A model generated the notes under the pieces. The model made no database searches. It was not told where the DNA came from and was given only the letters and a program-made list of their open reading frames with translations. Position numbers and translations under genes: made by a program. DNA of 64,000 nt from assembly GCA_016840165.1 (NCBI GenBank), contig JAEOSU010000018.1, positions 28,902-92,901 on the forward strand, given 5' to 3'. Shown piece by piece: positions 23,439 through 63,879 of the stretch; position 1 is the stretch's first letter, and the number at the start of each line of letters is the position of its first letter. This DNA comes from Promethearchaeota archaeon. GTDB lineage: Archaea > Asgardarchaeota > Lokiarchaeia > Sigyniarchaeales > SOKP01.

Positions 23439-26351
23439 ATGGAGCCAAGAAAATACGAATATATCCGATTTTTTGAAGAAGTTCGAAGAGAAGATGTTCC
23501 AATTGTCGGAGGGAAAAATGCTTCTCTCGGAGAATTGCTCTCTTTTGGAATTCCTGTACCTTTGGGTTTTGCAGTTACAGCAAAGGCTTTTGATTATGTA
23601 TTAGATACTAACTTCTTTACAATTAAAGAAGAAGAGGTCTCTCTGCGAGAACTCATATCTCGTGATATAAAGCGTATTTCAAATCAGCTAATGGAAGAAG
23701 ATATAAAAGCGATTGAAGAGGTTGACAAGTTATGCGCAAATATACGATATATTATAGAAAAAGCTAAAATTCCCGATAGTTTGAGAGATGAAATTTTAGA
23801 AGCATATCATAAATTAATCGATCACATTGGGGAAGAAACCACTTTTGCCATACGGAGCTCAGCAACCGCGGAAGATTTACCTGACGCTTCATTTGCAGGC
23901 CAGCAAGATACACATTTAAACATCTCTGGAGAGAAAGATGTTTTAGATTATATTTTAAAAGATATGGCATCTGTTTTCACTACCAGAGCAACGATGTACA
24001 GAGAGAGAGCGGGATTTGATCATTTTGCTGTAAAATTAAGTGTGGGCGTTCAGGAAATGGCTGGAGGAAAAGATGGAGTTAAAGCTTCCGGCGTAATGTT
24101 TTCAGAGGACCCAGACTCAGGTAATCCAAACGTTGTCGTCATTAGAGGAACTTGGGGCCTTGGAGAGTTGATTGTACAAGGAGTTGAAAAAGGTGACGAG
24201 TTCATCGTTTTTAAACACGGACCTCAATTACAAATAATCAGTAAAAGCCTCGTGAAAAAGGAGAAAACAATGATTTTCGATATTGAGAAAGGTGGGACGA
24301 TTACAAAACCCGTAGAAAAAGCTAATCAGAAGAAATTTTGCTTAAATGAACAACAAGTAAAGTTATTAGCTGAATTTGCCACCAAAATACGCGAACATTA
24401 TGGAGTACCAATGGATGTCGAATGGGCATTAGGAAATAATGGTAAAATCTATATAGTACAAGCTCGACCAGAAACAGTTCATTCTCAAAAAGGAGATACA
24501 GAGGAGATATTTTATCTATTAGAAGATGCAACTAAACTTATATCGGAAAATTATTTAATTGATAATTCTGGCACAGCAATCGGACGAAGAATTGGATATG
24601 GAAAAGTTAAAGTCATTGAATCGATTAATGAAGCCCATCTTCTTGAAGAAGGCGATATATTAATCACAGAGGAGACGAACCCAGATTGGACGAGTTATAT
24701 GGCAAATCTTGGAGGTGTAGTGACGGAGCGCGGAGGTCCCACTTGCCACGCGGCTATCGTTTCCAGAGAACTTAATATTGCATCAATTGTTGGTGCTGAT
24801 AATATTATAGAGCTTATTAAAGAAAAGATACGAGAATCCAACCTTCAAACAATTACAATTGACTGTAGTGAAGGCGAACCGCGCATCTGGGCAAAAGAGG
24901 TCGAATATGATTATGATACAATCGAATTTTCAAAGCTTCCTAAAACCAAAACGAAAGTTCTAGTGAATTTGGGAATCCCTAAAGGTGCTCTTAGTTCAGG
25001 AAAGCATCCTGATGGAACTGGGTTGGCACGTTTAGAATTCATCATAAATGATGAGATTCAAATCCATCCGAATGCCTTAATCGATTTCGATGCCTTACTT
25101 ATGAGATATGATATTTTATTAGAACAAAGAAAAAAAATCGAAAATATAAAAAAAAGTGATCTCCACTATAAAGATCCCTTTAACGAAGAGATTAAACGTT
25201 TAAGGCTCACTATTGACAAAATTAGAGAACTAACAGAAGGTTATGATGATAAAGTCGACTTTTACATACAAAAGTTGGCGGAGGGTATAGCAACTATCGC
25301 AGCAGGCGTATGGAAAAAATTACCAGATGGTGAGATAGCTCCATGTGTCGTTCGATTGTCTGACTTTAAAACAAATGAATATGAAAACCTCATTGGCGGT
25401 TGGTTTTATGAAAGTGATGAAAATAATCCGATGCTCGGCTTCCGAGGGGCCTCACGTTACTGTTCTAACGATTTCCAGAACGCTTTTATCTTAGAGTTAA
25501 AAGCAATTAAAAAGGCTAGGGAATGGGGCTTGATTAATATCATTCCAATGGTTCCATTTTTACGGACTCCAGAAGAGGGCATTCATATTGAGCAGATAAT
25601 GAGATCACAAGATTTAATTCGAGGTCAAAATGGATTAAAGGTCTATTGTATGGCAGAAATTCCCTCAAATATATTCCTAGCGGATATTTTCTGTAAAACA
25701 TTTGATGGGTTTTCAATAGGGAGCAATGATTTAACTCAATTAATTTACGGAGCTGGAAGAGATAACGAAAAACTGATTACACTTTCACGAAATTACAATT
25801 ATATAACGAATAGTGAAGCAATTAGAAGAGCAGTCTCCCATCTTATTAAAGTCGCCCATGAAAACAATAGAAAGGTCGGAATTTGTGGACAAGCACCGAG
25901 TGATGATCCCGATTTTCTCCGATTTCTAGTGAGGGAAGGAATTGACTCAATTTCTCTTAACTTTGATACTTTTGCTCGAGGAAGGATCAATACGTGGAGG
26001 ACTGAAATTATTGAAAACAAGTTAAGTGAAGATAATAAAGAATTAGCATATACTTTTCTAAGCCAATGCGATGATTTAATTGAGAAACTACGAATTCCAC
26101 GTGGTAAATTAAGGAATCTTGCTCGAAAGAAAAGAAAGAAAATTTCAGAAACATTAGATATTAATGTTTCCAAATTTGATGAGATATTTGAAAATACGAC
26201 AAGGATCTCAAATGAATTTGTGCAGAATATTAACTCTGGCAAATTTAAAAATTTTAATAATCTCTATAATGAATATCACGAACAATTACAGTCATATGAT
26301 AAACTGGTTCCTCAATTGATGAAAAGTATTCGTGAATTTGGTATTTTTTAA
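23439..26351 (+). CDS. ppsA: Phosphoenolpyruvate synthase (pyruvate, water dikinase)
   Basis: VGGKNASLGE, RSSATAEDLPDASFAGQQDT, QARPETV, phospho-His GGPTCHAAIVSRE, ENNPMLGFRGA, FSIGSNDLTQ and GICGQ. Confidence 0.95.
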   Translation: MEPRKYEYIRFFEEVRREDVPIVGGKNASLGELLSFGIPVPLGFAVTAKAFDYVLDTNFFTIKEEEVSLRELISRDIKRISNQLMEEDIKAIEEVDKLCANIRYIIEKAKIPDSLRDEILEAYHKLIDHIGEETTFAIRSSATAEDLPDASFAGQQDTHLNISGEKDVLDYILKDMASVFTTRATMYRERAGFDHFAVKLSVGVQEMAGGKDGVKASGVMFSEDPDSGNPNVVVIRGTWGLGELIVQGVEKGDEFIVFKHGPQLQIISKSLVKKEKTMIFDIEKGGTITKPVEKANQKKFCLNEQQVKLLAEFATKIREHYGVPMDVEWALGNNGKIYIVQARPETVHSQKGDTEEIFYLLEDATKLISENYLIDNSGTAIGRRIGYGKVKVIESINEAHLLEEGDILITEETNPDWTSYMANLGGVVTERGGPTCHAAIVSRELNIASIVGADNIIELIKEKIRESNLQTITIDCSEGEPRIWAKEVEYDYDTIEFSKLPKTKTKVLVNLGIPKGALSSGKHPDGTGLARLEFIINDEIQIHPNALIDFDALLMRYDILLEQRKKIENIKKSDLHYKDPFNEEIKRLRLTIDKIRELTEGYDDKVDFYIQKLAEGIATIAAGVWKKLPDGEIAPCVVRLSDFKTNEYENLIGGWFYESDENNPMLGFRGASRYCSNDFQNAFILELKAIKKAREWGLINIIPMVPFLRTPEEGIHIEQIMRSQDLIRGQNGLKVYCMAEIPSNIFLADIFCKTFDGFSIGSNDLTQLIYGAGRDNEKLITLSRNYNYITNSEAIRRAVSHLIKVAHENNRKVGICGQAPSDDPDFLRFLVREGIDSISLNFDTFARGRINTWRTEIIENKLSEDNKELAYTFLSQCDDLIEKLRIPRGKLRNLARKKRKKISETLDINVSKFDEIFENTTRISNEFVQNINSGKFKNFNNLYNEYHEQLQSYDKLVPQLMKSIREFGIF

Positions 26352-28336: not shown

Positions 28337-29389
28337 TTGGATAGAGCGATCATTCATTCCATAGTATACACTGAATTTAATGATGAATTAGGTCCAAATC
28401 CACTTTTTTGTCTTCCACAAGATTTGTCAGAGAACATTTCAATGCTTGTAAGCATTAAAACGGTTACGATCCTCTCAGCTGATCATGGTTTTATACCAGA
28501 TTCGCTTATAATTATTCCTTTTCCCTCGTTGAAATTAAAAGGTTTAATTAAATATATAGAAAGAGACGACGAATCAAGACGGGGAAAAGTTGCTCAATCT
28601 GCAATCACATTTTTATTTCGAGAAGTTGAAGATATCCTCTTTTATAAATATATGAACTATTTCAATTCTCCTTTTAATGAGACCACCCGTAAAATAGTTG
28701 AATTAGAAAATCAAAATCAGGATAAATCGCTGATATTTAGAGAAATTGAGAATTTAAAAGATAGTATTCACGCATTATTAAAAGATTTTAGGATTAAAGA
28801 ATTTCAGCAATTCTCTTATAAAGAATTTCCTGAAATAAAAAAATTAACTGAAAAAGAAGTTGATTTAAAGGCGAAAATAGTAATTATTGGAGATCCAGGA
28901 GTCGGAAAAACAAGTACTATTTTACGTTTTACTGATAATGCATTTAAAAGAAGCTATATCCCCACTATGGGCACAAACATAACTGAAAAGAGTTTTAGAG
29001 TTAAGGATAATATAATAGAGTTGATTCTATGGGATTTAGCAGGACAAAGTAAGTTCGAACTTATGCGAAAACATTTTTATCAAGGCGCTGAAGCTGTTAT
29101 ACTTATTTTTGATTTAACAAATCCTAAATCCTTTCAAAGTGTAATTCAGTGGTTTGAAGATATCGAGAATAACTTAATACTTGAGCATGAGCTTATTGGA
29201 TGTCTCTTTGGAAACAAAACTGATTTAACTAATGGACGTAAAATTGGTACTAATGAAGCACAAAAATTAGCCTCCCAGTTAAATCTAGATTACTTTGAAA
29301 CTTCGGCTCTAACAGGAAAAAATGTAGAAAATGCATTTTATAAGATCGCAGAGAAAATTATTGAAGTAAGAAAGCCAGATTTAGCATAA
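28337..29389 (+). CDS. Longin/uDENN - Rab-like small GTPase fusion (tandem paralogue)
   Basis: TEFNDELGPNP and DDESRRGK; GTPase motifs GDPGVGKTS, YIPTMG, WDLAGQ, GNKTD and ETSA. TTG start after GAGG. Confidence 0.9.
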   Translation: MDRAIIHSIVYTEFNDELGPNPLFCLPQDLSENISMLVSIKTVTILSADHGFIPDSLIIIPFPSLKLKGLIKYIERDDESRRGKVAQSAITFLFREVEDILFYKYMNYFNSPFNETTRKIVELENQNQDKSLIFREIENLKDSIHALLKDFRIKEFQQFSYKEFPEIKKLTEKEVDLKAKIVIIGDPGVGKTSTILRFTDNAFKRSYIPTMGTNITEKSFRVKDNIIELILWDLAGQSKFELMRKHFYQGAEAVILIFDLTNPKSFQSVIQWFEDIENNLILEHELIGCLFGNKTDLTNGRKIGTNEAQKLASQLNLDYFETSALTGKNVENAFYKIAEKIIEVRKPDLA

Positions 29390-54112: not shown

Positions 54113-55444
54113 TTAGACAATTTGGTAAAATTTATCCTCAAACTCTGGCTTTCCCTTATATTTATTCAAAAATATAAGCGGAGCTTTCTCAATATTTTTA
54201 AAAATATATGAAGGTACTCGAATTCCAGCTTGTTTGAGAGCGCTCTGTATTTCTTCTACACTTGGAGGGCATCCCTTTATAGGAATACATTCATTAATGA
54301 TTGGATTATCCTTATTTTTATTATACTGGCATTGACCGAGTAATATTGTTTTATTCATCCCCGGAGTGGGTTCTTTTATTTTCCCTGTTAAGATTTCTAT
54401 ATTATCAAAATCTTCTCCTTTCCATGCTTCCTTGATCGCGACTAAAATAACCCCATTATAGAAACTACAAAAAGTACACATAGTTTCATCATATTTAGGA
54501 TAACTAATACCTCCAATACCGGCTTTTGCATATGAAAGTGGAAGAGTATCATTCTTTTTATATATAAATTCCCATCCATGTGGTTTTGCTAATGATTCAA
54601 GGGACTCACCTTTAATTTCAATATCGCTTAAATCGAGAGGACGGCTTCTATCTTTCCCAACCTGAACTAAATGAGGAACATCAGCAGGATCTATACCTAA
54701 TAAGTTTGAACCTACTAAATCTGCAGAGAACATATCTTTAGATGCAACCAATATATCACTTCTATGAGCCTTTCCATCAAACGTAGGACCCCTCTCCAAG
54801 GTGTAAATCCCATCGATGAGCGTAAGACTTTCGGGGATTTTATTTGCTAATTGCGCCACATTGTAATGTAGATTATATTTTGGATCAGCACCATGAAATT
54901 TCTTGCGCGATGCAATATTGATAAATCCTTTTAAATTTTTAATCCCCAAACTAACTACACATTGAGCATGGGTCTTTAAAACGGGGATATCTATCAGAAA
55001 ATCAGAATGAAGCATATCTGAATTCATTTTAGCTGTCACACCTTCAGCTAATTCGACTTTTTCGTAAGGTCTTGAAAATAAATCATATAATTTGACCCCA
55101 TATCTTTCCTTTAGCAAATTATATCCTAATTTTTCAAAGGCATCTTCAGGTGTCTCTTTATCCTTAGGATCATCGGCAATTATTCCATCCCCAATTGAAA
55201 TATCGTTGACGCCGCGTTCTTTCAATAGCCTTATTACGTCCTCGACTACTCTTGATGTGGTTAGCATACCCCATTTAGGAAAATCGCAATGTCTATTCCA
55301 ATAAACTAAATTAGGTTTAATAAATATCTTCCCATCAACAGGTAGTCGTTCAAATCCATCAACTAGTTCTATTGCTTTTTTAACTGAGACTAGAGGATCT
55401 TTATATTTTACAATAGATACTACTTTTTTACTCATTGATACCAC
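54113..55444 (-). CDS. DUF362 domain protein (probable Fe-S)
   Basis: IFIKPNL, PVLKTH, SLGIKNLKG, GP and C-terminal CTFC...GQC...KGCPP. Confidence 0.85.
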   Translation of the reverse strand: MVSMSKKVVSIVKYKDPLVSVKKAIELVDGFERLPVDGKIFIKPNLVYWNRHCDFPKWGMLTTSRVVEDVIRLLKERGVNDISIGDGIIADDPKDKETPEDAFEKLGYNLLKERYGVKLYDLFSRPYEKVELAEGVTAKMNSDMLHSDFLIDIPVLKTHAQCVVSLGIKNLKGFINIASRKKFHGADPKYNLHYNVAQLANKIPESLTLIDGIYTLERGPTFDGKAHRSDILVASKDMFSADLVGSNLLGIDPADVPHLVQVGKDRSRPLDLSDIEIKGESLESLAKPHGWEFIYKKNDTLPLSYAKAGIGGISYPKYDETMCTFCSFYNGVILVAIKEAWKGEDFDNIEILTGKIKEPTPGMNKTILLGQCQYNKNKDNPIINECIPIKGCPPSVEEIQSALKQAGIRVPSYIFKNIEKAPLIFLNKYKGKPEFEDKFYQIV

Positions 55445-56114: not shown

Positions 56115-59015
56115 TTAGAAAAATATATCATGCTTACGACAAAGATACTTTATTATTTCAAATGACACAATACAAATTAATGAAATTAGAAAGCAAATTA
56201 ACCAATCAAACGCTGTCAAAAACATAAACATGAAATTGATTCCCACTGAAGCTAATGCAACTTGAAAGCCAGGAATATACATTAATGCTAAGAAGACTCC
56301 AAATAATAGTCCAATTAAGAGATACATAAATTTGGTACTATCCTCCTTGATGCTTTTGATTAATGACTTATTTGGACGGCGAATCTGATAAACAAGAAAA
56401 GATTCACAGAAAAATAAAGTTACCATGAGCATTGTAAGGGCTTTTCCTTGAGTGAAAGATACCTCTGGAGGAATTAAATCAATCGTAGTTACTATTGTAT
56501 AAAGATAGGCATCATTAAACCCTCCAAATTCAACATTCTCTAAGAAAACTGGATAAAAACCTGTAATTACAGTAAAGTATACTATTATCATACTAATGGC
56601 TAACAAGATACCAAAACCACACAGCAAAAGTAAAGTGTTTTTACTTAATATCTCTTCCTCGTCTCTCGGTTTATGCTTCATAATATCCTTTGATGTAGTA
56701 TCAAAAGTTAGAATAAGTCCTGGGAATATATGCACTGTTATTGAGAGAAAAATCCATTGAAGGTAAAACGCGTCATCTAAAAAATAGGGTAATGGTATTC
56801 CAAATATTTGTGGAATGATGACTGCTAAAATAAATTGAACTATTCCTTCAAAAACGTTAATACAGATATAGAAAAATACGACAGCTCGTATTCGAGAGAA
56901 AATACCTCGCCCCGATTCAATGCCAGTGACGATAGAATTAAAAGAGTCATCACTAATTACCATATCTGATGCTTCTTTTGCGACATCTGTGCCTTGAATC
57001 CCCATAGCAATACCCGCGTCAGCCATATTCAACGCCAAGGCATCATTCACTCCATCACCTGTCATGGCGACTACTTTATTAGCATCCTGATATCTCTCTA
57101 CAATTGTTTGTTTATGTTCTGGTGAAACTCTAGCAAACGCCCGAATTTTGCTAAATTCATCAAATGATGGATATTTATCAATATCTTTTCCTTCAATTAC
57201 TAATTCATTCATGCTATCAATTATAGAGATTTGCTGGGCAATGGCTCTAGCTGTAGGTACAGAATCTCCAGTAATCATGACTACTTCTACTCCAGCATCA
57301 TGACATGCTTTTACAGATTCTTTAACCTTATCTCTTGGAGGATCTAATATAGTAACAAAACCAATATAGATCATTTCTGATTCGCATAATATTCTCCCTT
57401 TATCACCTTCTGGGGGTGCATTATCCAATTTCCTATAACAGAGACTTAATATACGATATCCCTGACTCGCATAAATTTCAGCAATCTTAGAAACTTTATC
57501 TTTTAATTCATCAATAAATTCTACTTCATTATCCTTATAGAGTACTTTGGTACATAACGGGAGAAGTATCTCACTTGCTCCTTTAGTGAATGAATAGTAT
57601 TTCCCTTCTCTCTTATACACTTTAGACATTCGCTTAACTTTAGAATCAAAAGGATATTCTTTTTCATACTCAAAATCGTCAAGCATATAATCGCCCATTC
57701 CCTTTTGGAAGAGAACCATTAAGGCACCCTCTGTTGGACTGCCAATAACACTCCAATTCGGAATAACTCTATGGTCAATCTCTATTTCATTTTTAACTAA
57801 TGCGGAATTATTGTTTAAAAACCCAGAAGTTAAGAGTAGTTTCAATTGGGGATAATCATCAATATGTTTCACAAATTTTGGACTTTTTTCATCATCAATA
57901 TTTATTATCTCCCCCTCAGGAGCATAGCCTCGCCCAGTAACCTTAAAAATTGAACCATTTGTCCATATGTGTTCGATAGACATTTGATTTTTGGTTAATG
58001 TACCTGTTTTGTCAGAACACACAACGCTAACACGTCCTAAACTGTCAACAGAAGCTAAATTTCGGATAATTACTCCATGATGAGCCATTGATAGAACTCC
58101 AGTCAATAAAATAATCGTTACTAACAATGGAATATTAATTGGAAGAAGATCCATTGCAGAATTTAGACTTCGTGCGATCTCAAATTGTGTAAACCCACTT
58201 GCGGCCCAAATAATAATAAGAGTGAGTAACCAAAAACTAATAACAATGATTCCCAACCACTTCCCAAAATTGTTCATCTTTTCACGGATTGGAATCTCAC
58301 TGGTTCCCGCTTCCTCTAAACCAACTGAAATTTTTCCGATTTCTGTATCTTTTCCAGTCTTAGTCGCAATGGCCGTTCCATTTCCCGTAGTAATATATGT
58401 TCCATAAAAAATCATATTCTTACGATCTGCTAAAGAGATATCCGCTTGTGTTAACGCGATACCTCGTTCCATCTTTTTTTGAGGTTCACTTTCCCCTGTA
58501 AGAGAACTTTCATTAACTTCAAGGTTAGCCGATTGAATGATACGCCCATCCGCAGGAATCCGATCTCCTTGTGTTAAAACTAATAAGTCTCCGATCACTA
58601 CTTCTTTAGTTGGAACATCTAATTTTAAACCATCTCGAATAATAGTTGTAGTTGGAGCTGTCATCTCACGAAGTGCATTTAACTTTTTAGTCGCCCGATA
58701 TTGTTGTACAACAGCGACAAAGCAATTTAAGCCTACTATTGCTAAGGTTAGTAGTATAAATGAAAGATTTCCTTTTCCTCCAAATACGGCATCTAAATAC
58801 AAAATTAAAGCACCAACAAGATATATCACAATAAGCCAGTTAAATAATGGAGCTAAATAGATTTTTATGAATCCTTTAGATGCTTTTGGAATTTCATTCG
58901 GACCATATAATTCTAATCGTTTTAAAGCTTCTTCCTTTGTTAAACCTTTCGCAGAATTTGTTTTTAATTTATCATAGAGATGTTCTAAATCCATATTATA
59001 ATAAGTTTCTTCCAT
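56115..59015 (-). CDS. P-type ATPase, type II-like scaffold with non-canonical transport site (M4 PINIP)
   Basis: TGES, DKTGTLT, KGA, DPPR, MITGD and TGDGVND are intact; M4 reads LLPINIP instead of PEGLP. Confidence 0.92.
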   Translation of the reverse strand: MEETYYNMDLEHLYDKLKTNSAKGLTKEEALKRLELYGPNEIPKASKGFIKIYLAPLFNWLIVIYLVGALILYLDAVFGGKGNLSFILLTLAIVGLNCFVAVVQQYRATKKLNALREMTAPTTTIIRDGLKLDVPTKEVVIGDLLVLTQGDRIPADGRIIQSANLEVNESSLTGESEPQKKMERGIALTQADISLADRKNMIFYGTYITTGNGTAIATKTGKDTEIGKISVGLEEAGTSEIPIREKMNNFGKWLGIIVISFWLLTLIIIWAASGFTQFEIARSLNSAMDLLPINIPLLVTIILLTGVLSMAHHGVIIRNLASVDSLGRVSVVCSDKTGTLTKNQMSIEHIWTNGSIFKVTGRGYAPEGEIINIDDEKSPKFVKHIDDYPQLKLLLTSGFLNNNSALVKNEIEIDHRVIPNWSVIGSPTEGALMVLFQKGMGDYMLDDFEYEKEYPFDSKVKRMSKVYKREGKYYSFTKGASEILLPLCTKVLYKDNEVEFIDELKDKVSKIAEIYASQGYRILSLCYRKLDNAPPEGDKGRILCESEMIYIGFVTILDPPRDKVKESVKACHDAGVEVVMITGDSVPTARAIAQQISIIDSMNELVIEGKDIDKYPSFDEFSKIRAFARVSPEHKQTIVERYQDANKVVAMTGDGVNDALALNMADAGIAMGIQGTDVAKEASDMVISDDSFNSIVTGIESGRGIFSRIRAVVFFYICINVFEGIVQFILAVIIPQIFGIPLPYFLDDAFYLQWIFLSITVHIFPGLILTFDTTSKDIMKHKPRDEEEILSKNTLLLLCGFGILLAISMIIVYFTVITGFYPVFLENVEFGGFNDAYLYTIVTTIDLIPPEVSFTQGKALTMLMVTLFFCESFLVYQIRRPNKSLIKSIKEDSTKFMYLLIGLLFGVFLALMYIPGFQVALASVGINFMFMFLTAFDWLICFLISLICIVSFEIIKYLCRKHDIFF

Positions 59016-59205
59016 AATTTAATCTCCCGTGACTATTGATAATATTATAAAGCAATAATCTAATATCAAATCTTTTAATAAATAGACTATAACAATCTTT
59101 ATTTTTATTTTATTTCTTTTTGGTAAAAAAATACTTATTAGTCAAATAATTCGTAATAAAAGTAAATAATTTTTACCGTTTTAAAGATAAATTAAATTGA
59201 AAAAA

Positions 59206-62079
59206 TTAGAATATAATCTTTTTATTTCGAGCCACTTTTTTAATGATTTCTATGCCCAAAATTCCCGGAAGGGCGAAAAGGATACATAATAACCAATCAG
59301 TTATGCTAAGAAACATGAAATTAATTTGGAAATTTAAACCAAACACTTCATTCACGTAAAAATTTACTTGATAAGAAAACATTATAAAAAGAATATGCAG
59401 ACCAAGAGTAAAAACAGAAATTAGAAGTAAAGAGCGTGAAAATTCTTCACGTACACTTTTTACAAGGGATTTATTTGGTCGTCGAAAGGTCCAGATAAAA
59501 GTAGTTTCAACAATGTATATCGTGGTAATGAACATAGTTCGGGCTTTTTGCTCAACTAATTCAGGATGAGGCGCAAGGGGATCAAAATAGCTTAATATCG
59601 GATTAAGGTTCCACTCATTCATTGGAATGATCTCTGCTAAACTAAATTCTAAAATTAGAACAAGCCCAATTCCCATTAATAGTGCTTGAAATATCAATAA
59701 AATCCACATATTCTTATTAAGTAATTGTTCCTCATCTCTTGGAGGTTCTTTCATCACGTCCAGAGGATGCTTATCAATTACAAGTGCTAAAGAGGGAAAT
59801 GAATGCAAAATGGCAAATATATATATATGCTGCCATTCAGAGCTAAATAAATTAAAATCAGGTATGAATTCATAAGTAAAAAAGATAATTGCTTCCATAA
59901 TATTGATACAAATAAAAAAGTAGATAATATTGCGGATCTTAGAGAAAAGACCTCTGCCAATTCTAACTCCTTTCTCGATTGAAGTAAAATTGTCATCAGA
60001 AATAACCATATCGGCTGTTTCTTTTGCTACATCAGTCCCTGTGATCCCCATGGCTATACCTGCATTTGCGAGTTTCAAAGCTAAAGCATCATTTATCCCA
60101 TCTCCTGTCATAGCGCAGATTTTATCTTGTTTTTGATAATTTCTTACGATAATCTCCTTATCTGATGGATTTACTCGTGCAAATACTGAAACTCTATTAA
60201 ACTCATCCATTGGAAGTGATGCGATATTGTTGCCCTCGATAACAAGGTCTCCTGGCTTATAGATATTCATTTGTTCTGCTATTGTTTTTGCCGTCGCTGG
60301 ATGGTCTCCAGTAATCATTATTACTTTTATTCCTCCTTCTTGACATTCCTTAACTGAAAATTTAACCCCATTTCGAGGGGGATCTAAGATTGAAACAAAA
60401 CTTAAAAAGATTAGATCTGTTTCATAATCATCCCTATTTTTACTTTCTAAAGAATCATTTATTTTATAGGCGATCGCTAAAGTCCTATATCCCATATTCG
60501 CGCGATCCTGTATTTGAGTAGAAATCTCCTGTTTAAAGTTAGAATCAAACGATTTTGTGTTACCATTAATTTCAATTTTGGAAGAATTGTTTAATATCCT
60601 TTCCGGTGCTCCCTTTGTAAAAATGTAAAAATCGTTAGGCTCTTTTTTAACCTGGCATATTGTTGTCATACGCTTTAATTCTGAATCAAAAGGGAATTCT
60701 TGTTTCTTTTCATATTTTGCTTTAATATCATAGGGTAAAAGTTCTGCTTTTTCAGCTAAAACTAATAATGCGGACTCTGTAGGCGAACCTAGAGCTTTTC
60801 TTACTGCTACTTGGTTCGTATCTTTCAATTTTACACGCACATCTTCATATATTAATTGGGCATTGTTATTTAACACGCAAGAATCAATAAATTTTTGAAA
60901 AGTCGTGTTCGATTTTAATTCACTTTCAGATACTCCATTTTCATCAAGGATTAATCCTTCCCCCTCATAACCAGAACCAGTGACAGAATATTCATGATTA
61001 TTTATCCAAAAATATTCAACGGTCATTTCATTTCTGGTGATAGTACCTGTTTTATCGGAACAAATAATACTAACCCTTCCTAAAGATTCAATAGCAGCAA
61101 GATTTTTCACAATAACTCCGTTCTTTGCCATGTTTAGCACACCAGTTATTAGGACAAGCGTTGTCAAAATTGGTAAATTGATAGGCATGACATTCATAGA
61201 GCGTAATATTGAACTCACCAGTGCTTCACTAATAAAAGTCCCAAAAAACTGATTCTGTATCGCTAATAAAATTAATTTATAACTGATAAGTACACAAAGA
61301 TTAATAATAACGATAAGACCTAATATATAGCCTAATCGGTTTAATTTTCGGGTTAGAGGTATATCTTCTATACTTCCCATTTCGTTCAACTGGGTAGAAA
61401 TCTTCCCAATTTCCGTATGCGCCCCTGTACCTATAACCAAAGCTTTCGCTCTGCCAGTATGAGCATATGTGCCCATAAATAACATATTCTTTTGTTTCTG
61501 AACAGGAGCATCAGATATCTCGAGGGTGACCACTTCTTTATCAACTGGTTCACTTTCTCCCGTTAATGAAGCCTCTTCAACCGTTAAATTAATTACTTCA
61601 ATTAATCGGGCATCAGCAGGAATTTTGTCTCCTTGATCAACTAGTATAATATCTCCAGGGAGGACCTCTTGAGTAGGTATTTCAAATTGAATTCCATCTC
61701 TTATAACATTAGCTTTTAGAGCAGCAATCCGTTGCAAGGATTCAAGTGCTTTTCGAGCTCGATATTGTTGGATAATAACAGTAACCGAGTTCAAAATGAC
61801 AACGGTAAAAGTAATATATGTTGAACTTGGAGAACCAAGAATTAAAACTAAAATTCCTGAAACGATTAATATGACGATTAAAAAATTGAAAATAGGTGCA
61901 AGATAAATTTTCCACAGCGATTTTTTAACTTTCGGTAATTCATTATAACCATATTTTTCATATAATGTATTTAAATTTGAGAGCTTGAGACCTTGAGTTA
62001 AATCAGTCTCAAATTTATCTTTTAGTTCATTAATTTCCCATTTATAAAATTTATCTTCGGAGATTTCAGCATACTGCAT
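59206..62079 (-). CDS. P-type ATPase, tandem paralogue with non-canonical transport site (M4 PINLP)
   Basis: TGES, DKTGTIT, KGAPE, DPPR, MITGD and TGDGIND are intact; M4 reads VMPINLP. Confidence 0.92.
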   Translation of the reverse strand: MQYAEISEDKFYKWEINELKDKFETDLTQGLKLSNLNTLYEKYGYNELPKVKKSLWKIYLAPIFNFLIVILIVSGILVLILGSPSSTYITFTVVILNSVTVIIQQYRARKALESLQRIAALKANVIRDGIQFEIPTQEVLPGDIILVDQGDKIPADARLIEVINLTVEEASLTGESEPVDKEVVTLEISDAPVQKQKNMLFMGTYAHTGRAKALVIGTGAHTEIGKISTQLNEMGSIEDIPLTRKLNRLGYILGLIVIINLCVLISYKLILLAIQNQFFGTFISEALVSSILRSMNVMPINLPILTTLVLITGVLNMAKNGVIVKNLAAIESLGRVSIICSDKTGTITRNEMTVEYFWINNHEYSVTGSGYEGEGLILDENGVSESELKSNTTFQKFIDSCVLNNNAQLIYEDVRVKLKDTNQVAVRKALGSPTESALLVLAEKAELLPYDIKAKYEKKQEFPFDSELKRMTTICQVKKEPNDFYIFTKGAPERILNNSSKIEINGNTKSFDSNFKQEISTQIQDRANMGYRTLAIAYKINDSLESKNRDDYETDLIFLSFVSILDPPRNGVKFSVKECQEGGIKVIMITGDHPATAKTIAEQMNIYKPGDLVIEGNNIASLPMDEFNRVSVFARVNPSDKEIIVRNYQKQDKICAMTGDGINDALALKLANAGIAMGITGTDVAKETADMVISDDNFTSIEKGVRIGRGLFSKIRNIIYFFICINIMEAIIFFTYEFIPDFNLFSSEWQHIYIFAILHSFPSLALVIDKHPLDVMKEPPRDEEQLLNKNMWILLIFQALLMGIGLVLILEFSLAEIIPMNEWNLNPILSYFDPLAPHPELVEQKARTMFITTIYIVETTFIWTFRRPNKSLVKSVREEFSRSLLLISVFTLGLHILFIMFSYQVNFYVNEVFGLNFQINFMFLSITDWLLCILFALPGILGIEIIKKVARNKKIIF

Positions 62080-63318: not shown

Positions 63319-63879
63319 ATGAAACGCCACTTTGTTCTTCGCTATTTAAAGCTATGGAATTTAGGATTTTGTTTAGTTTCGGGTTTTGAGCTTGTTGCAT
63401 TTATAATTGTAAGCTTTTTTACACCTATTTTTGTAGTAAGCCAAGATTATACGGTTTTTTCTTTATTCTTTATTTCCGGTTTGAGCCCTATCCACATGCC
63501 AGTATTATGGTTGTTGATATTTATCTCTATATTTATCTTCCTAATTTTTGCCTTGTCGCTACTCATAATTGCAAGAAATGAAAAAATAGAAAATATAACT
63601 TACGCAAAAATTTTGCTTTCGAGTGGCTTTTTCCTTTTAATTGCGAATTTTATAAAAGCCGAAGCAATCTATATTTTATCGAAAAGTATAATTGATCCGT
63701 CGGGATTATCCCTTATATTTGAACTCTTATTATACAGTCCAGCAAGTACTCCATTTTATGGCGCGGCGCTTTGGATATATTCTACAGCATCAGTGTGCAC
63801 ATATCTAATTTCAGGTTTAGTTTTTGCCGCAATAGGCTTGAAGTGGATGCTATTATTAGAGAATAAGAAATTAGCTTAA
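63319..63879 (+). CDS. Hypothetical polytopic membrane protein
   Basis: About 4-5 hydrophobic helices. Confidence 0.7.
   Translation: MKRHFVLRYLKLWNLGFCLVSGFELVAFIIVSFFTPIFVVSQDYTVFSLFFISGLSPIHMPVLWLLIFISIFIFLIFALSLLIIARNEKIENITYAKILLSSGFFLLIANFIKAEAIYILSKSIIDPSGLSLIFELLLYSPASTPFYGAALWIYSTASVCTYLISGLVFAAIGLKWMLLLENKKLA

Follow-up and report, generated by a model that had tools for sequence, protein, structure and literature searches.

Tandem P-type ATPases of a Lokiarchaeial Genome Carry a Remodeled Transport Site and Represent an Apparently Undescribed, P2-like Subfamily Centered on Asgard Archaea

P-type ATPases are classed by their transport sites, and each new architecture recognized so far (P3A, P4, P5, and P6) has come with a new substrate or a new direction of transport. 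In Ca2+ pumps, acidic residues of transmembrane helices M1 and M2 line the cytoplasmic entry. The P4 lipid flippases are marked by DGET in the A domain, by an M4 motif, PISL, that lacks the second proline, by a lysine in M5, and by GDGANDV in the P domain. A 2023 review (Palmgren, PMC10654040) describes P4 pumps as unique to eukaryotes and states that undescribed prokaryotic diversity remains; Asgard archaea go unmentioned in it. Here we describe two adjacent genes for P-type ATPases, P0001 and P0002, on a stretch of 64,000 nucleotides (the window; positions 28,902 to 92,901 of contig JAEOSU010000018.1, assembly GCA_016840165.1, 3.6 Mb in 105 contigs) from a Promethearchaeota archaeon of the Lokiarchaeia. 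Both carry PIN-containing motifs in M4 at the place of the PEGLP of Ca2+ pumps. Pumps of this kind are called PIN-type below, and those with the canonical motif PEGL-type.

Judged from their sequences, P0001 and P0002 are each a complete ten-helix P-type ATPase and should be catalytically competent. The Pfam N-terminal, E1-E2, Cation_ATPase, Hydrolase, and C-terminal domains are present in both. The motifs TGES (residues 173-176 in either protein), DKTGT, KGAxE, DPPR, and MITGD were found in both pumps, as was TGDGxND, which reads TGDGVND in P0001 (residues 652-658) and TGDGIND in P0002 (residues 658-664). With family membership defined as a score at or above the curated NCBIfam cut-off, both belong to the P-type ATPase superfamily (HAD-IC; TIGR01494; 283 and 262 bits, cut-off 62). 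A first-pass annotation of this DNA had read PINIP and PINLP in M4, H762 and H759 in M6, an Asn and a Glu in M5, a Glu in M8, and a full set of catalytic motifs; in both paralogues these motifs and their coordinates proved exact. The two proteins are 40% identical to each other, and P0001 has more than 120 homologues of at least 70% identity in Asgard metagenome-assembled genomes (MAGs). A third paralogue of the same genome, P0272 on contig C80, is canonical, with PEGLI in M4, NFDE in M5, and NIATDG in M6.

Alignment of P0001 to human SPCA1 with HMMER placed PINIP on PEGLP and matched I293 with the ion-binding Glu, N294 with the Gly, and H762 with the conserved Asp of M6. MAFFT alignments that combined 116 PIN-type with 92 PEGL-type pumps agreed with this register, and between the conserved Gln and Pro of M6 they contained no gap. 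A two-residue insertion or gap in M6, seen in the HMMER alignment to SPCA1, was discarded as an artefact on that account. S758, V761, and H762 of P0001 thus correspond to N796, T799, and D800 of SERCA. In the same numbering, the changes from SERCA to the PIN-type pumps are E309 to Ile, G310 to Asn, N796 to Ser or Phe, T799 to Val or Leu, and D800 to His, with N768, E771, and E908 retained.

The substitution pattern that separates PIN-type from PEGL-type pumps is far beyond chance. Position 293 was occupied by Ile in 93 of the 116 PIN-type pumps and by Leu (9), Val (6), Phe (6), or Trp (2) in the others, whereas 89 of the 92 PEGL-type pumps had Glu there. N294 was found in 113 PIN-type pumps, as against Gly in 81 PEGL-type pumps, and H762 in 115, as against Asp in 75. 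The M2 residue Q105 (108 of 116) and the M1 residue P56 (113 of 116) replaced a Glu and a Gln, respectively, each present in 87 of the 92 PEGL-type pumps. E723 of M5 was without exception, N720 was kept in 110 PIN-type pumps, and the M8 position of E871 was Glu in 107, where the PEGL-type pumps had Gln (53) or Glu (37). The second proline of the M4 motif was retained in 109 of 116. In a further alignment of 31 sequences, P292, E723, and Q104 were invariant, and N294, H762, Q753, P765, D772, E871, N97, and R879 were at least 90% conserved. The constant new feature of M4 is the Asn, and the Ile position varies among Ile, Leu, Val, Phe, and Trp. PIN-type pumps were defined by P-[ILVFW]-N-[ILF]-[PVI] in M4, 43 residues before the Asp of DKTGT, by His at the Asp position of M6, by the change of Q-E to Q-[QMT] in M2, and by retention of the M5 N-x-x-E and the M8 Glu; P0001 and P0002 carry all of these features.

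As judged from the alignments, the canonical Ca2+ site II is dismantled in the PIN-type pumps: a hydrophobic residue stands in for the M4 Glu, His for the M6 Asp, and either Ser or a hydrophobic residue for the M6 Asn. At the cytoplasmic entry, the acidic residues of M1 and M2 are likewise neutralized. The residues corresponding to SERCA site I in M5 (Asn and Glu) and M8 (Glu) are kept. The near-invariant new Asn lies in the unwound part of M4. The first-pass annotation had taken identical substitutions in two diverged copies as a sign of selection, a view borne out by their near invariance across a large, old clade. Loss of the canonical ion ligands would also fit degenerate proteins that have given up transport and serve purely for regulation or as scaffolds. 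This explanation is hardly credible, since the catalytic motifs are all intact, the altered residues in the membrane are near-invariant across a phylum-wide clade, and orthologues of 70-90% identity occur in many MAGs.

In a FastTree phylogeny of 210 sequences, rooted on the two P1B pumps of the genome, all 116 PIN-type pumps formed one clade (support 0.97) that contained no PEGL-type sequence. An IQ-TREE analysis (LG+G4) of 84 sequences recovered the clade with an SH-like approximate likelihood ratio test value of 99, and the PEGL-type P2 pumps sampled together made up its sister group (79); a genuine archaeal P3A pump and Escherichia coli MgtA branched outside the two groups together. Among the P2 references were 80 ordinary PEGL-type pumps retrieved through the universal motifs CSDKTGT and GDGVND. 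P0001 and P0002 fell into separate old subclades of the FastTree phylogeny, the P0002 type branching off ahead of the divergence of the P0001 type from the Thor, Odin, and Heimdall types. The order of a P0002-type gene followed by a P0001-type gene was repeated in many loci. We infer that the two are an old duplicate pair held in fixed tandem order in the Loki lineage; their specificity or regulation is probably not the same.

When 1.84 billion representative sequences were searched exhaustively with HMMER, about 35 clusters headed the list, all above approximately 520 bits and all with P-[IVLFW]-N-[ILF]-[PVI] in M4; all lower matches were PEGLP-like. By means of a degenerate pattern, GTDB species genomes were scanned for DNA that could encode P-[hydrophobic]-N-[hydrophobic] at a fixed M4 position before DKTGTxT. 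At least 119 stretches with the PIN-type motif were found, and every one examined was a P-type ATPase with the motif. Among the matches listed, 57 were from Promethearchaeota/Loki, 15 from Thor, 8 from Hod, 7 from Heimdall, 6 from Hermod, and 1 each from Odin, Sigyn, Atabey, and Borr; the others were from unclassified archaea (16), Nitrososphaeria (2), Bathyarchaeota (2), Methanomethylicus (1), and a contig labeled Aerophobetes (1). Among these matches, PIN-type pumps are nearly all Asgard, with a few in TACK lineages. One PIN-type member was assigned to Korarchaeota by name. The Aerophobetes contig (L122; NJBP01000013.1, Candidatus Aerophobetes bacterium) held the only bacterial-labeled pump among the matches listed. 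That pump grouped with a Promethearchaeia/Loki sequence at full support and its neighbors were of Loki type; to judge by these sequences, the contig is probably mis-binned.

Within the phylum, 277 of 301 sampled genomes, and 88 of 90 high-quality ones, contained a match to P0001 at E <= 1e-100. Roughly 70% of the 301 matched at E < 1e-190, a level at which the genome's own PEGL-type paralogue, at 6.7e-126, would not appear. Two cultured organisms have PIN-type pumps, L. ossiferum with PINIP and P. syntrophicum MK-D1 with a pump of the PFNFP type. The motifs PINIP, PINLP, PINIV, and PFNFP were not mentioned as protein motifs in the searchable literature. In the searchable open literature, with the TCDB FUPA families lying outside the comparison, no description of the clade was found and only generic statements on a "Ca2+ ATPase" were encountered. 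Thus, the PIN-type pumps make up a distinct and apparently undescribed P2-like subfamily that is centered on Asgard archaea and comes close to an Asgard hallmark. The first-pass annotation had considered an undescribed subfamily, and to this agrees also that the window pumps score below every curated family cut-off.

Some of the distant matches (P0157, P0189, P0190, and P0230) were giant P-type ATPases of 1,500-1,700 amino acids with CPAAV, CPSAL, APSSF, or APASA in M4. They resemble the uncharacterized mycobacterial CtpH/CtpI type mentioned in PMC10654040.

The NCBIfam models ranked PMR1 type first (TIGR01522; 461 bits for P0001 and 452 for P0002, cut-off 798), followed by SERCA type (TIGR01116; 414 for P0001 and 443 for P0002, cut-off 703), IID (396), IIC (384), PMCA (380), P3A (TIGR01647; 332 and 336 for the two pumps, cut-off 615), MgtA (282), P5 (TIGR01657; 224 and 233, cut-off 618), and P4 (TIGR01652; 96 and 102, cut-off 431). 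All scores were below the respective cut-offs. Of the P2A features, both pumps have site I (N-x-x-E in M5 and Glu in M8); PEGLP in M4 and N-x-x-T-D in M6 are absent, with Ser or Phe, Val or Leu, and His at the Asn, Thr, and Asp positions. Neither has the PPxLP motif of P5 pumps in M4. The AlphaFold2 model of P0001 (predicted local distance difference test score 87.3, predicted template modeling score 0.83) showed a P2-pump fold with an unwound M4. The top 50 Foldseek matches of this model were all SERCA, SPCA, LMCA1, Na,K-ATPases, or H,K-ATPases; the best fold matches were SERCA2b, SPCA1, H,K- and Na,K-ATPases, and PfATP4. An exhaustive scan of structures gave 27-30% identity to P0001 for P2 pumps (Z scores: PfATP4 31.8, SPCA1 29.1, SERCA2 28.8, and LMCA1 28.6), 21-24% for P3 pumps, and 17-19% for P4 and P5 pumps (Z 23-27). 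For the pumps scored, the P4 model gave 89-115 bits for PIN-type and 80-102 bits for PEGL-type pumps, and the P5 model was likewise indifferent. Because PEGL-type pumps score alike on both models, the PIN-type pumps have no excess affinity to P4 or P5. By family models, fold comparison, and motif tests, the clade adjoins the P2 pumps and has no special P4 affinity.

What might such a site transport? The first-pass annotation had proposed a substrate other than Ca2+, which is a sensible reading of the sequences because every site-II ligand is replaced. We suggest that the pumps would bind one small non-Ca2+ cation in a remodeled, site-I-like pocket formed by N720, E723, H762, E871, and N294 and that its transport would follow the ordinary E1/E2 cycle. 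The cargo would most plausibly be either a proton or a divalent metal suited to coordination by His and carboxylates (Mn, Fe, Zn, Co, Ni, or possibly Mg). We give transport of such a cation at this pocket about even chances.

Ordinary export of Ca2+, or of Ca2+ and Mn2+, with unusual ligands would be in keeping with the annotation of these proteins ("Ca2+-transporting ATPase," TC 3.A.3.2.21-like), with the names in databases and in the Asgard transportome paper (PMC7997004), which enters these proteins only as orthologues of a putative Ca2+ ATPase, with the best family-model and PDB matches (PMR1/SPCA, LMCA1, and SERCA), and with the retained Asn and Glu of M5 and Glu of M8. We nevertheless regard it as very unlikely. 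None of the three side-chain ligands of site II is left, their replacements are conserved, and the acidic Ca2+ entry residues are neutralized. Even the single-site Ca2+ pumps LMCA1, PMCA, and SPCA keep site II. The scores of the window pumps lie well below every Ca2+-pump cut-off. Canonical PEGL-type pumps occur besides the PIN-type pumps in the host genome and in P. syntrophicum MK-D1; because the host genome keeps this separate pump, its Ca2+ export need not depend on P0001 or P0002. The label "Ca2+-transporting ATPase" is probably wrong for PIN-type pumps.

Alternatively, the emptied canonical site could serve as a headgroup pocket, as in P4 and P5 pumps, for a lipid or another amphipathic or organic substrate (a phospholipid, a polyprenyl phosphate, or a polyamine-like compound), either by convergence or through a distant archaeal forerunner and possibly together with a VTT/DedA protein. 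After its proline, M4 does follow the hydrophobic-polar-hydrophobic pattern of the P4 motif PISL, and all site-II ligands have gone together with the acidic entry funnel. The first-pass annotation had built on this likeness of Ile to PISL and had raised a relevance to the origin of P4 flippases. The analogy fails in that the Ile is the variable residue of the motif, and a hydrophobic residue at the M4 Glu position is not flippase-specific, because an archaeal P3A pump (a Methanobacterium sequence, L218, which passes the NCBIfam cut-off) reads PVAQP in M4, with LDD in M6 and Arg in M5. TGES in place of DGET, GDGVNDA, the P2-type N-x-x-E of M5 with a hydrophobic residue where P4 pumps have Lys, the conserved M8 Glu, the second M4 proline, and the P4-model scores and structural identities given above tell against a relevance to P4 origin and against a lipid substrate alike. 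PIN-type genes as the answer to the origin of P4 flippases are not supported. CDC50 (PF03381) had no match in the host genome, but it had none in 14 control genomes either, and P4B pumps need no CDC50 (PMC10654040).

The gene neighborhood bears on the same alternative. A protein of 262-307 amino acids is encoded between or beside both pump genes in seven loci from several Loki- and Hod-labeled MAGs (L215, L157, L139, L187, L195, L172, and L165). Two copies were scanned against the Pfam VTT family (PF09335, gathering score 33.9 bits) and scored 36.2 (L215) and 31.5 bits (L187). More distant VTT proteins (29-33% identity) are encoded near deep-branching PLNFP/PFNFP pumps in L100 and L179. VTT proteins include the endoplasmic reticulum scramblases VMP1 and TMEM41B (PMC8077175) and the bacterial UndP flippases (PMC9876793). 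VMP1 reportedly enhances SERCA activity (PMC11294092, citing Zhao et al. 2017). MK-D1 has members of the VMP1 and TMEM41 families (bioRxiv 10.1101/2020.12.18.423352). An SCP2 (sterol/lipid carrier) gene also recurs near Thor-lineage PIN-type copies, at a distance of about 1.3 kb and on the opposite strand, in L107 (4381-4803, minus) and 7 other loci of that lineage. On the other hand, the window and many relatives are without a VTT gene. The only VTT match of the host genome (34% identity; contig C51, 118187-118645, plus; L217:1378-2121) lies approximately 1.4 kb downstream of a heavy-metal-type P1B ATPase (SCPC), with a 252-amino acid open reading frame (ORF) between them, and hence adjacency of VTT genes and pumps is not PIN-specific; it may be a more general theme. 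DedA proteins are, moreover, linked also to ion and pH homeostasis. The VTT association is a lead rather than proof, a real but weak hint at lipids. Taken together, we consider a lipid or organic substrate unlikely. The more specific proposal, that PIN-type pumps are not ion pumps but ATP-driven translocators of lipid or polyprenyl-phosphate headgroups that work with a co-encoded, VMP1/TMEM41-like VTT/DedA protein as an Asgard-wide pump-plus-scramblase module, seems to us decidedly unlikely. If true, such a module might be a counterpart in archaea, or a precursor, of the membrane homeostasis that eukaryotes maintain by flippases and scramblases, or of the partnership between VMP1 and SERCA.

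Several points weigh against the transport of a small non-Ca2+ cation, which we prefer. The two Glu, the His, and the Asn residues of the proposed pocket could form an internal salt-bridge network, a built-in charge, rather than an ion site, in which case a non-ionic cargo would be favored. Neither metal-binding domains nor metal-related neighbors were found, and clustering of the neighbors of 119 loci yielded no metal- or ion-related gene common across lineages. The VTT/DedA gene that several relatives have in the pump operon, and that also adjoins genes of a deep-branching subclade, points away from ions, as does the SCP2 gene of the Thor lineage. Finally, the trees, in which the clade lies next to PEGL-type P2 pumps, span P1B, P2, P3A, and MgtA references and contain no eukaryotic P2, P3, P4, or P5 sequences.

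Coordinates of the pump genes, their key motifs, and the neighboring genes are collected in Table 1. In the Loki lineage, the block runs from a 321-amino acid protein resembling transcription factor B (TFB) through the P0002-type and P0001-type pumps to a GNAT acetyltransferase and a DUF362 protein. The TFB-like protein may be a dedicated regulator. In the relatives L196 and L103, a second protein, of 308 amino acids, that matches Pfam TFIIB repeats is encoded nearby. A 186-amino acid ORF without a Pfam match (window positions 63319-63879, plus) is divergent from the TFB-like gene; it is conserved in 17 related loci, and its relatives look membrane-embedded. Most neighbors of PIN-type genes were lineage-specific, namely a luciferase-like oxidoreductase, TFB, PanB, a subtilase, SCP2, AOR, MFS, a molybdopterin oxidoreductase, an ABC ATPase, and a metallo-beta-lactamase-fold protein.

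Table 1. Positions of the PIN-type pump genes, their motifs, and associated genes (window positions unless a locus is named)
Feature	Position	Strand	Basis or context
P0001, PIN-type P-type ATPase, downstream paralogue, 966 amino acids, M4 PINIP	56115..59015	minus	Pfam domains, catalytic motifs, AlphaFold2 model
P0002, PIN-type P-type ATPase, upstream paralogue, 957 amino acids, M4 PINLP	59206..62079	minus	Pfam domains, motifs, tree
M4 PINIP of P0001, residues 292-296; I293 at Glu position and N294 at Gly position of PEGLP	58128..58142	minus	HMMER and MAFFT alignments
M4 PINLP of P0002, residues 299-303	61171..61185	minus	Sequence motif
M6 HIFP of P0001; H762 codon (56730-56732) at conserved Asp position	56721..56732	minus	Alignments
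M6 HSFP of P0002; H759 codon (59803-59805)	59794..59805	minus	Motif and alignment
M5 NVFEGI of P0001, residues 720-725; N720 and E723 retained	56841..56858	minus	Motif and alignment
M5 NIMEAI of P0002, residues 726-731; N726 and E729 retained	59887..59904	minus	Motif
M8 Glu871 codon of P0001 (SERCA E908 position)	56403..56405	minus	Alignment
M8 Glu858 codon of P0002	59506..59508	minus	Motif and alignment
DKTGT phosphorylation motif of P0001, residues 335-339	57999..58013	minus	Motif
DKTGT phosphorylation motif of P0002, residues 342-346	61042..61056	minus	Motif
AT-rich 190-bp spacer between pump genes	59016..59205	minus	Without VTT gene
321-amino acid protein with N-terminal TFIIB-like zinc ribbon, directly upstream of P0002	62191..63156	minus	Beside P0002-type genes in 26 loci, lowest identity 43%
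GNAT acetyltransferase, directly downstream of P0001	55519..56052	minus	Conserved in 19 Loki-lineage loci
DUF362 protein, further downstream	54113..55444	minus	Conserved in 16 loci
VTT/DedA-type gene	L215:3956-4762	minus	
VTT/DedA-type gene	L187:2163-2987	plus	
VTT/DedA-type gene	L157:4360-5166	minus	

Rfam returned no family anywhere in the window. A local G+C peak (0.376, as compared with about 0.30) with positive GC skew was noted at window positions 24001-26000. The canonical paralogue P0272 is adjoined by a gene for a 352-amino acid protein (L003:130-1188, plus). Judged by eye, the C-terminal half of this protein resembles a small Ras/Rab-like GTPase (GSAAVGKTTL) and is preceded by an N-terminal extension; by sequence, it may be an Asgard-type eukaryote-like GTPase.

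Most of the Asgard genomes sampled have the PIN-type site, frequently in two or three copies, and identification of its substrate would reveal what the archaea nearest to eukaryotes transport through their membranes. Mis-annotation of these pumps would affect statements on Ca2+ signaling in Asgard archaea (e.g. PMC7997004). The existence of two cultured members makes the question testable, and the recurring VTT/DedA neighbor provides a testable link to membrane-lipid homeostasis.

In comparison with named families, the PIN-type pumps share with the P3A H+-ATPases (AHA2, Pma1, and archaeal P3A) a P-x-x-x-P motif in M4 that is hydrophobic at the Glu position, and neither group has an acidic M4 ligand; the M4 motif of plant P3A pumps is PIAMP. 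P3A pumps have Asp in M6 (LDD) and Arg in M5, whereas PIN-type pumps have His in M6 and N-x-x-E in M5. Among the P2D Na+ pumps (PfATP4 and fungal ENA), PfATP4 gave the top structural Z score, with 28% identity over 732 residues, whereas the IID score lies below its cut-off of 645 bits and P2D pumps keep the M6 Asp. The P4 flippases (Drs2, ATP8A1, and Neo1) resemble the PIN-type pumps in overall P-type fold (Z 25-27) and in a hydrophobic residue followed by a small polar one in M4 (PISL and PINI). They differ in DGET, in GDGANDV where PIN-type pumps have GDGVNDA, in the absent second M4 proline, and in the Lys of M5, in place of which Ile, Val, or Leu precedes the M5 Asn in PIN-type pumps. The P6 ATPases (mycobacterial CtpE family) are an earlier example of a prokaryotic P-type family distinguished by an exchange of the conserved M6 Asp; CtpE has Ile at this position, and the exchange alters transport behavior (Palmgren 2023, PMC10654040). 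By their description, P6 pumps keep PEGL in M4 and are bacterial, whereas the PIN-type pumps lack PEGL, have His in M6, and are archaeal. The closest likeness is to the P2A pumps (SPCA1/PMR1, Listeria LMCA1, and SERCA), with which PIN-type pumps share domain order, ten transmembrane helices, TGES, DKTGT, GDGVNDA, the P-x-x-x-P spacing of M4, N-x-x-E in M5, and Glu in M8, and which provide the best family-model, sequence, and fold matches. PIN-type pumps differ from them in the exchange of the M4 Glu for a hydrophobic residue and of the next Gly for Asn, in the change of N..TD to hydrophobic..hydrophobic-His in M6, of QE to QQ in M2, and of Q..D to P..N in M1, and in forming a clade that stands outside all sampled PEGL-type pumps.

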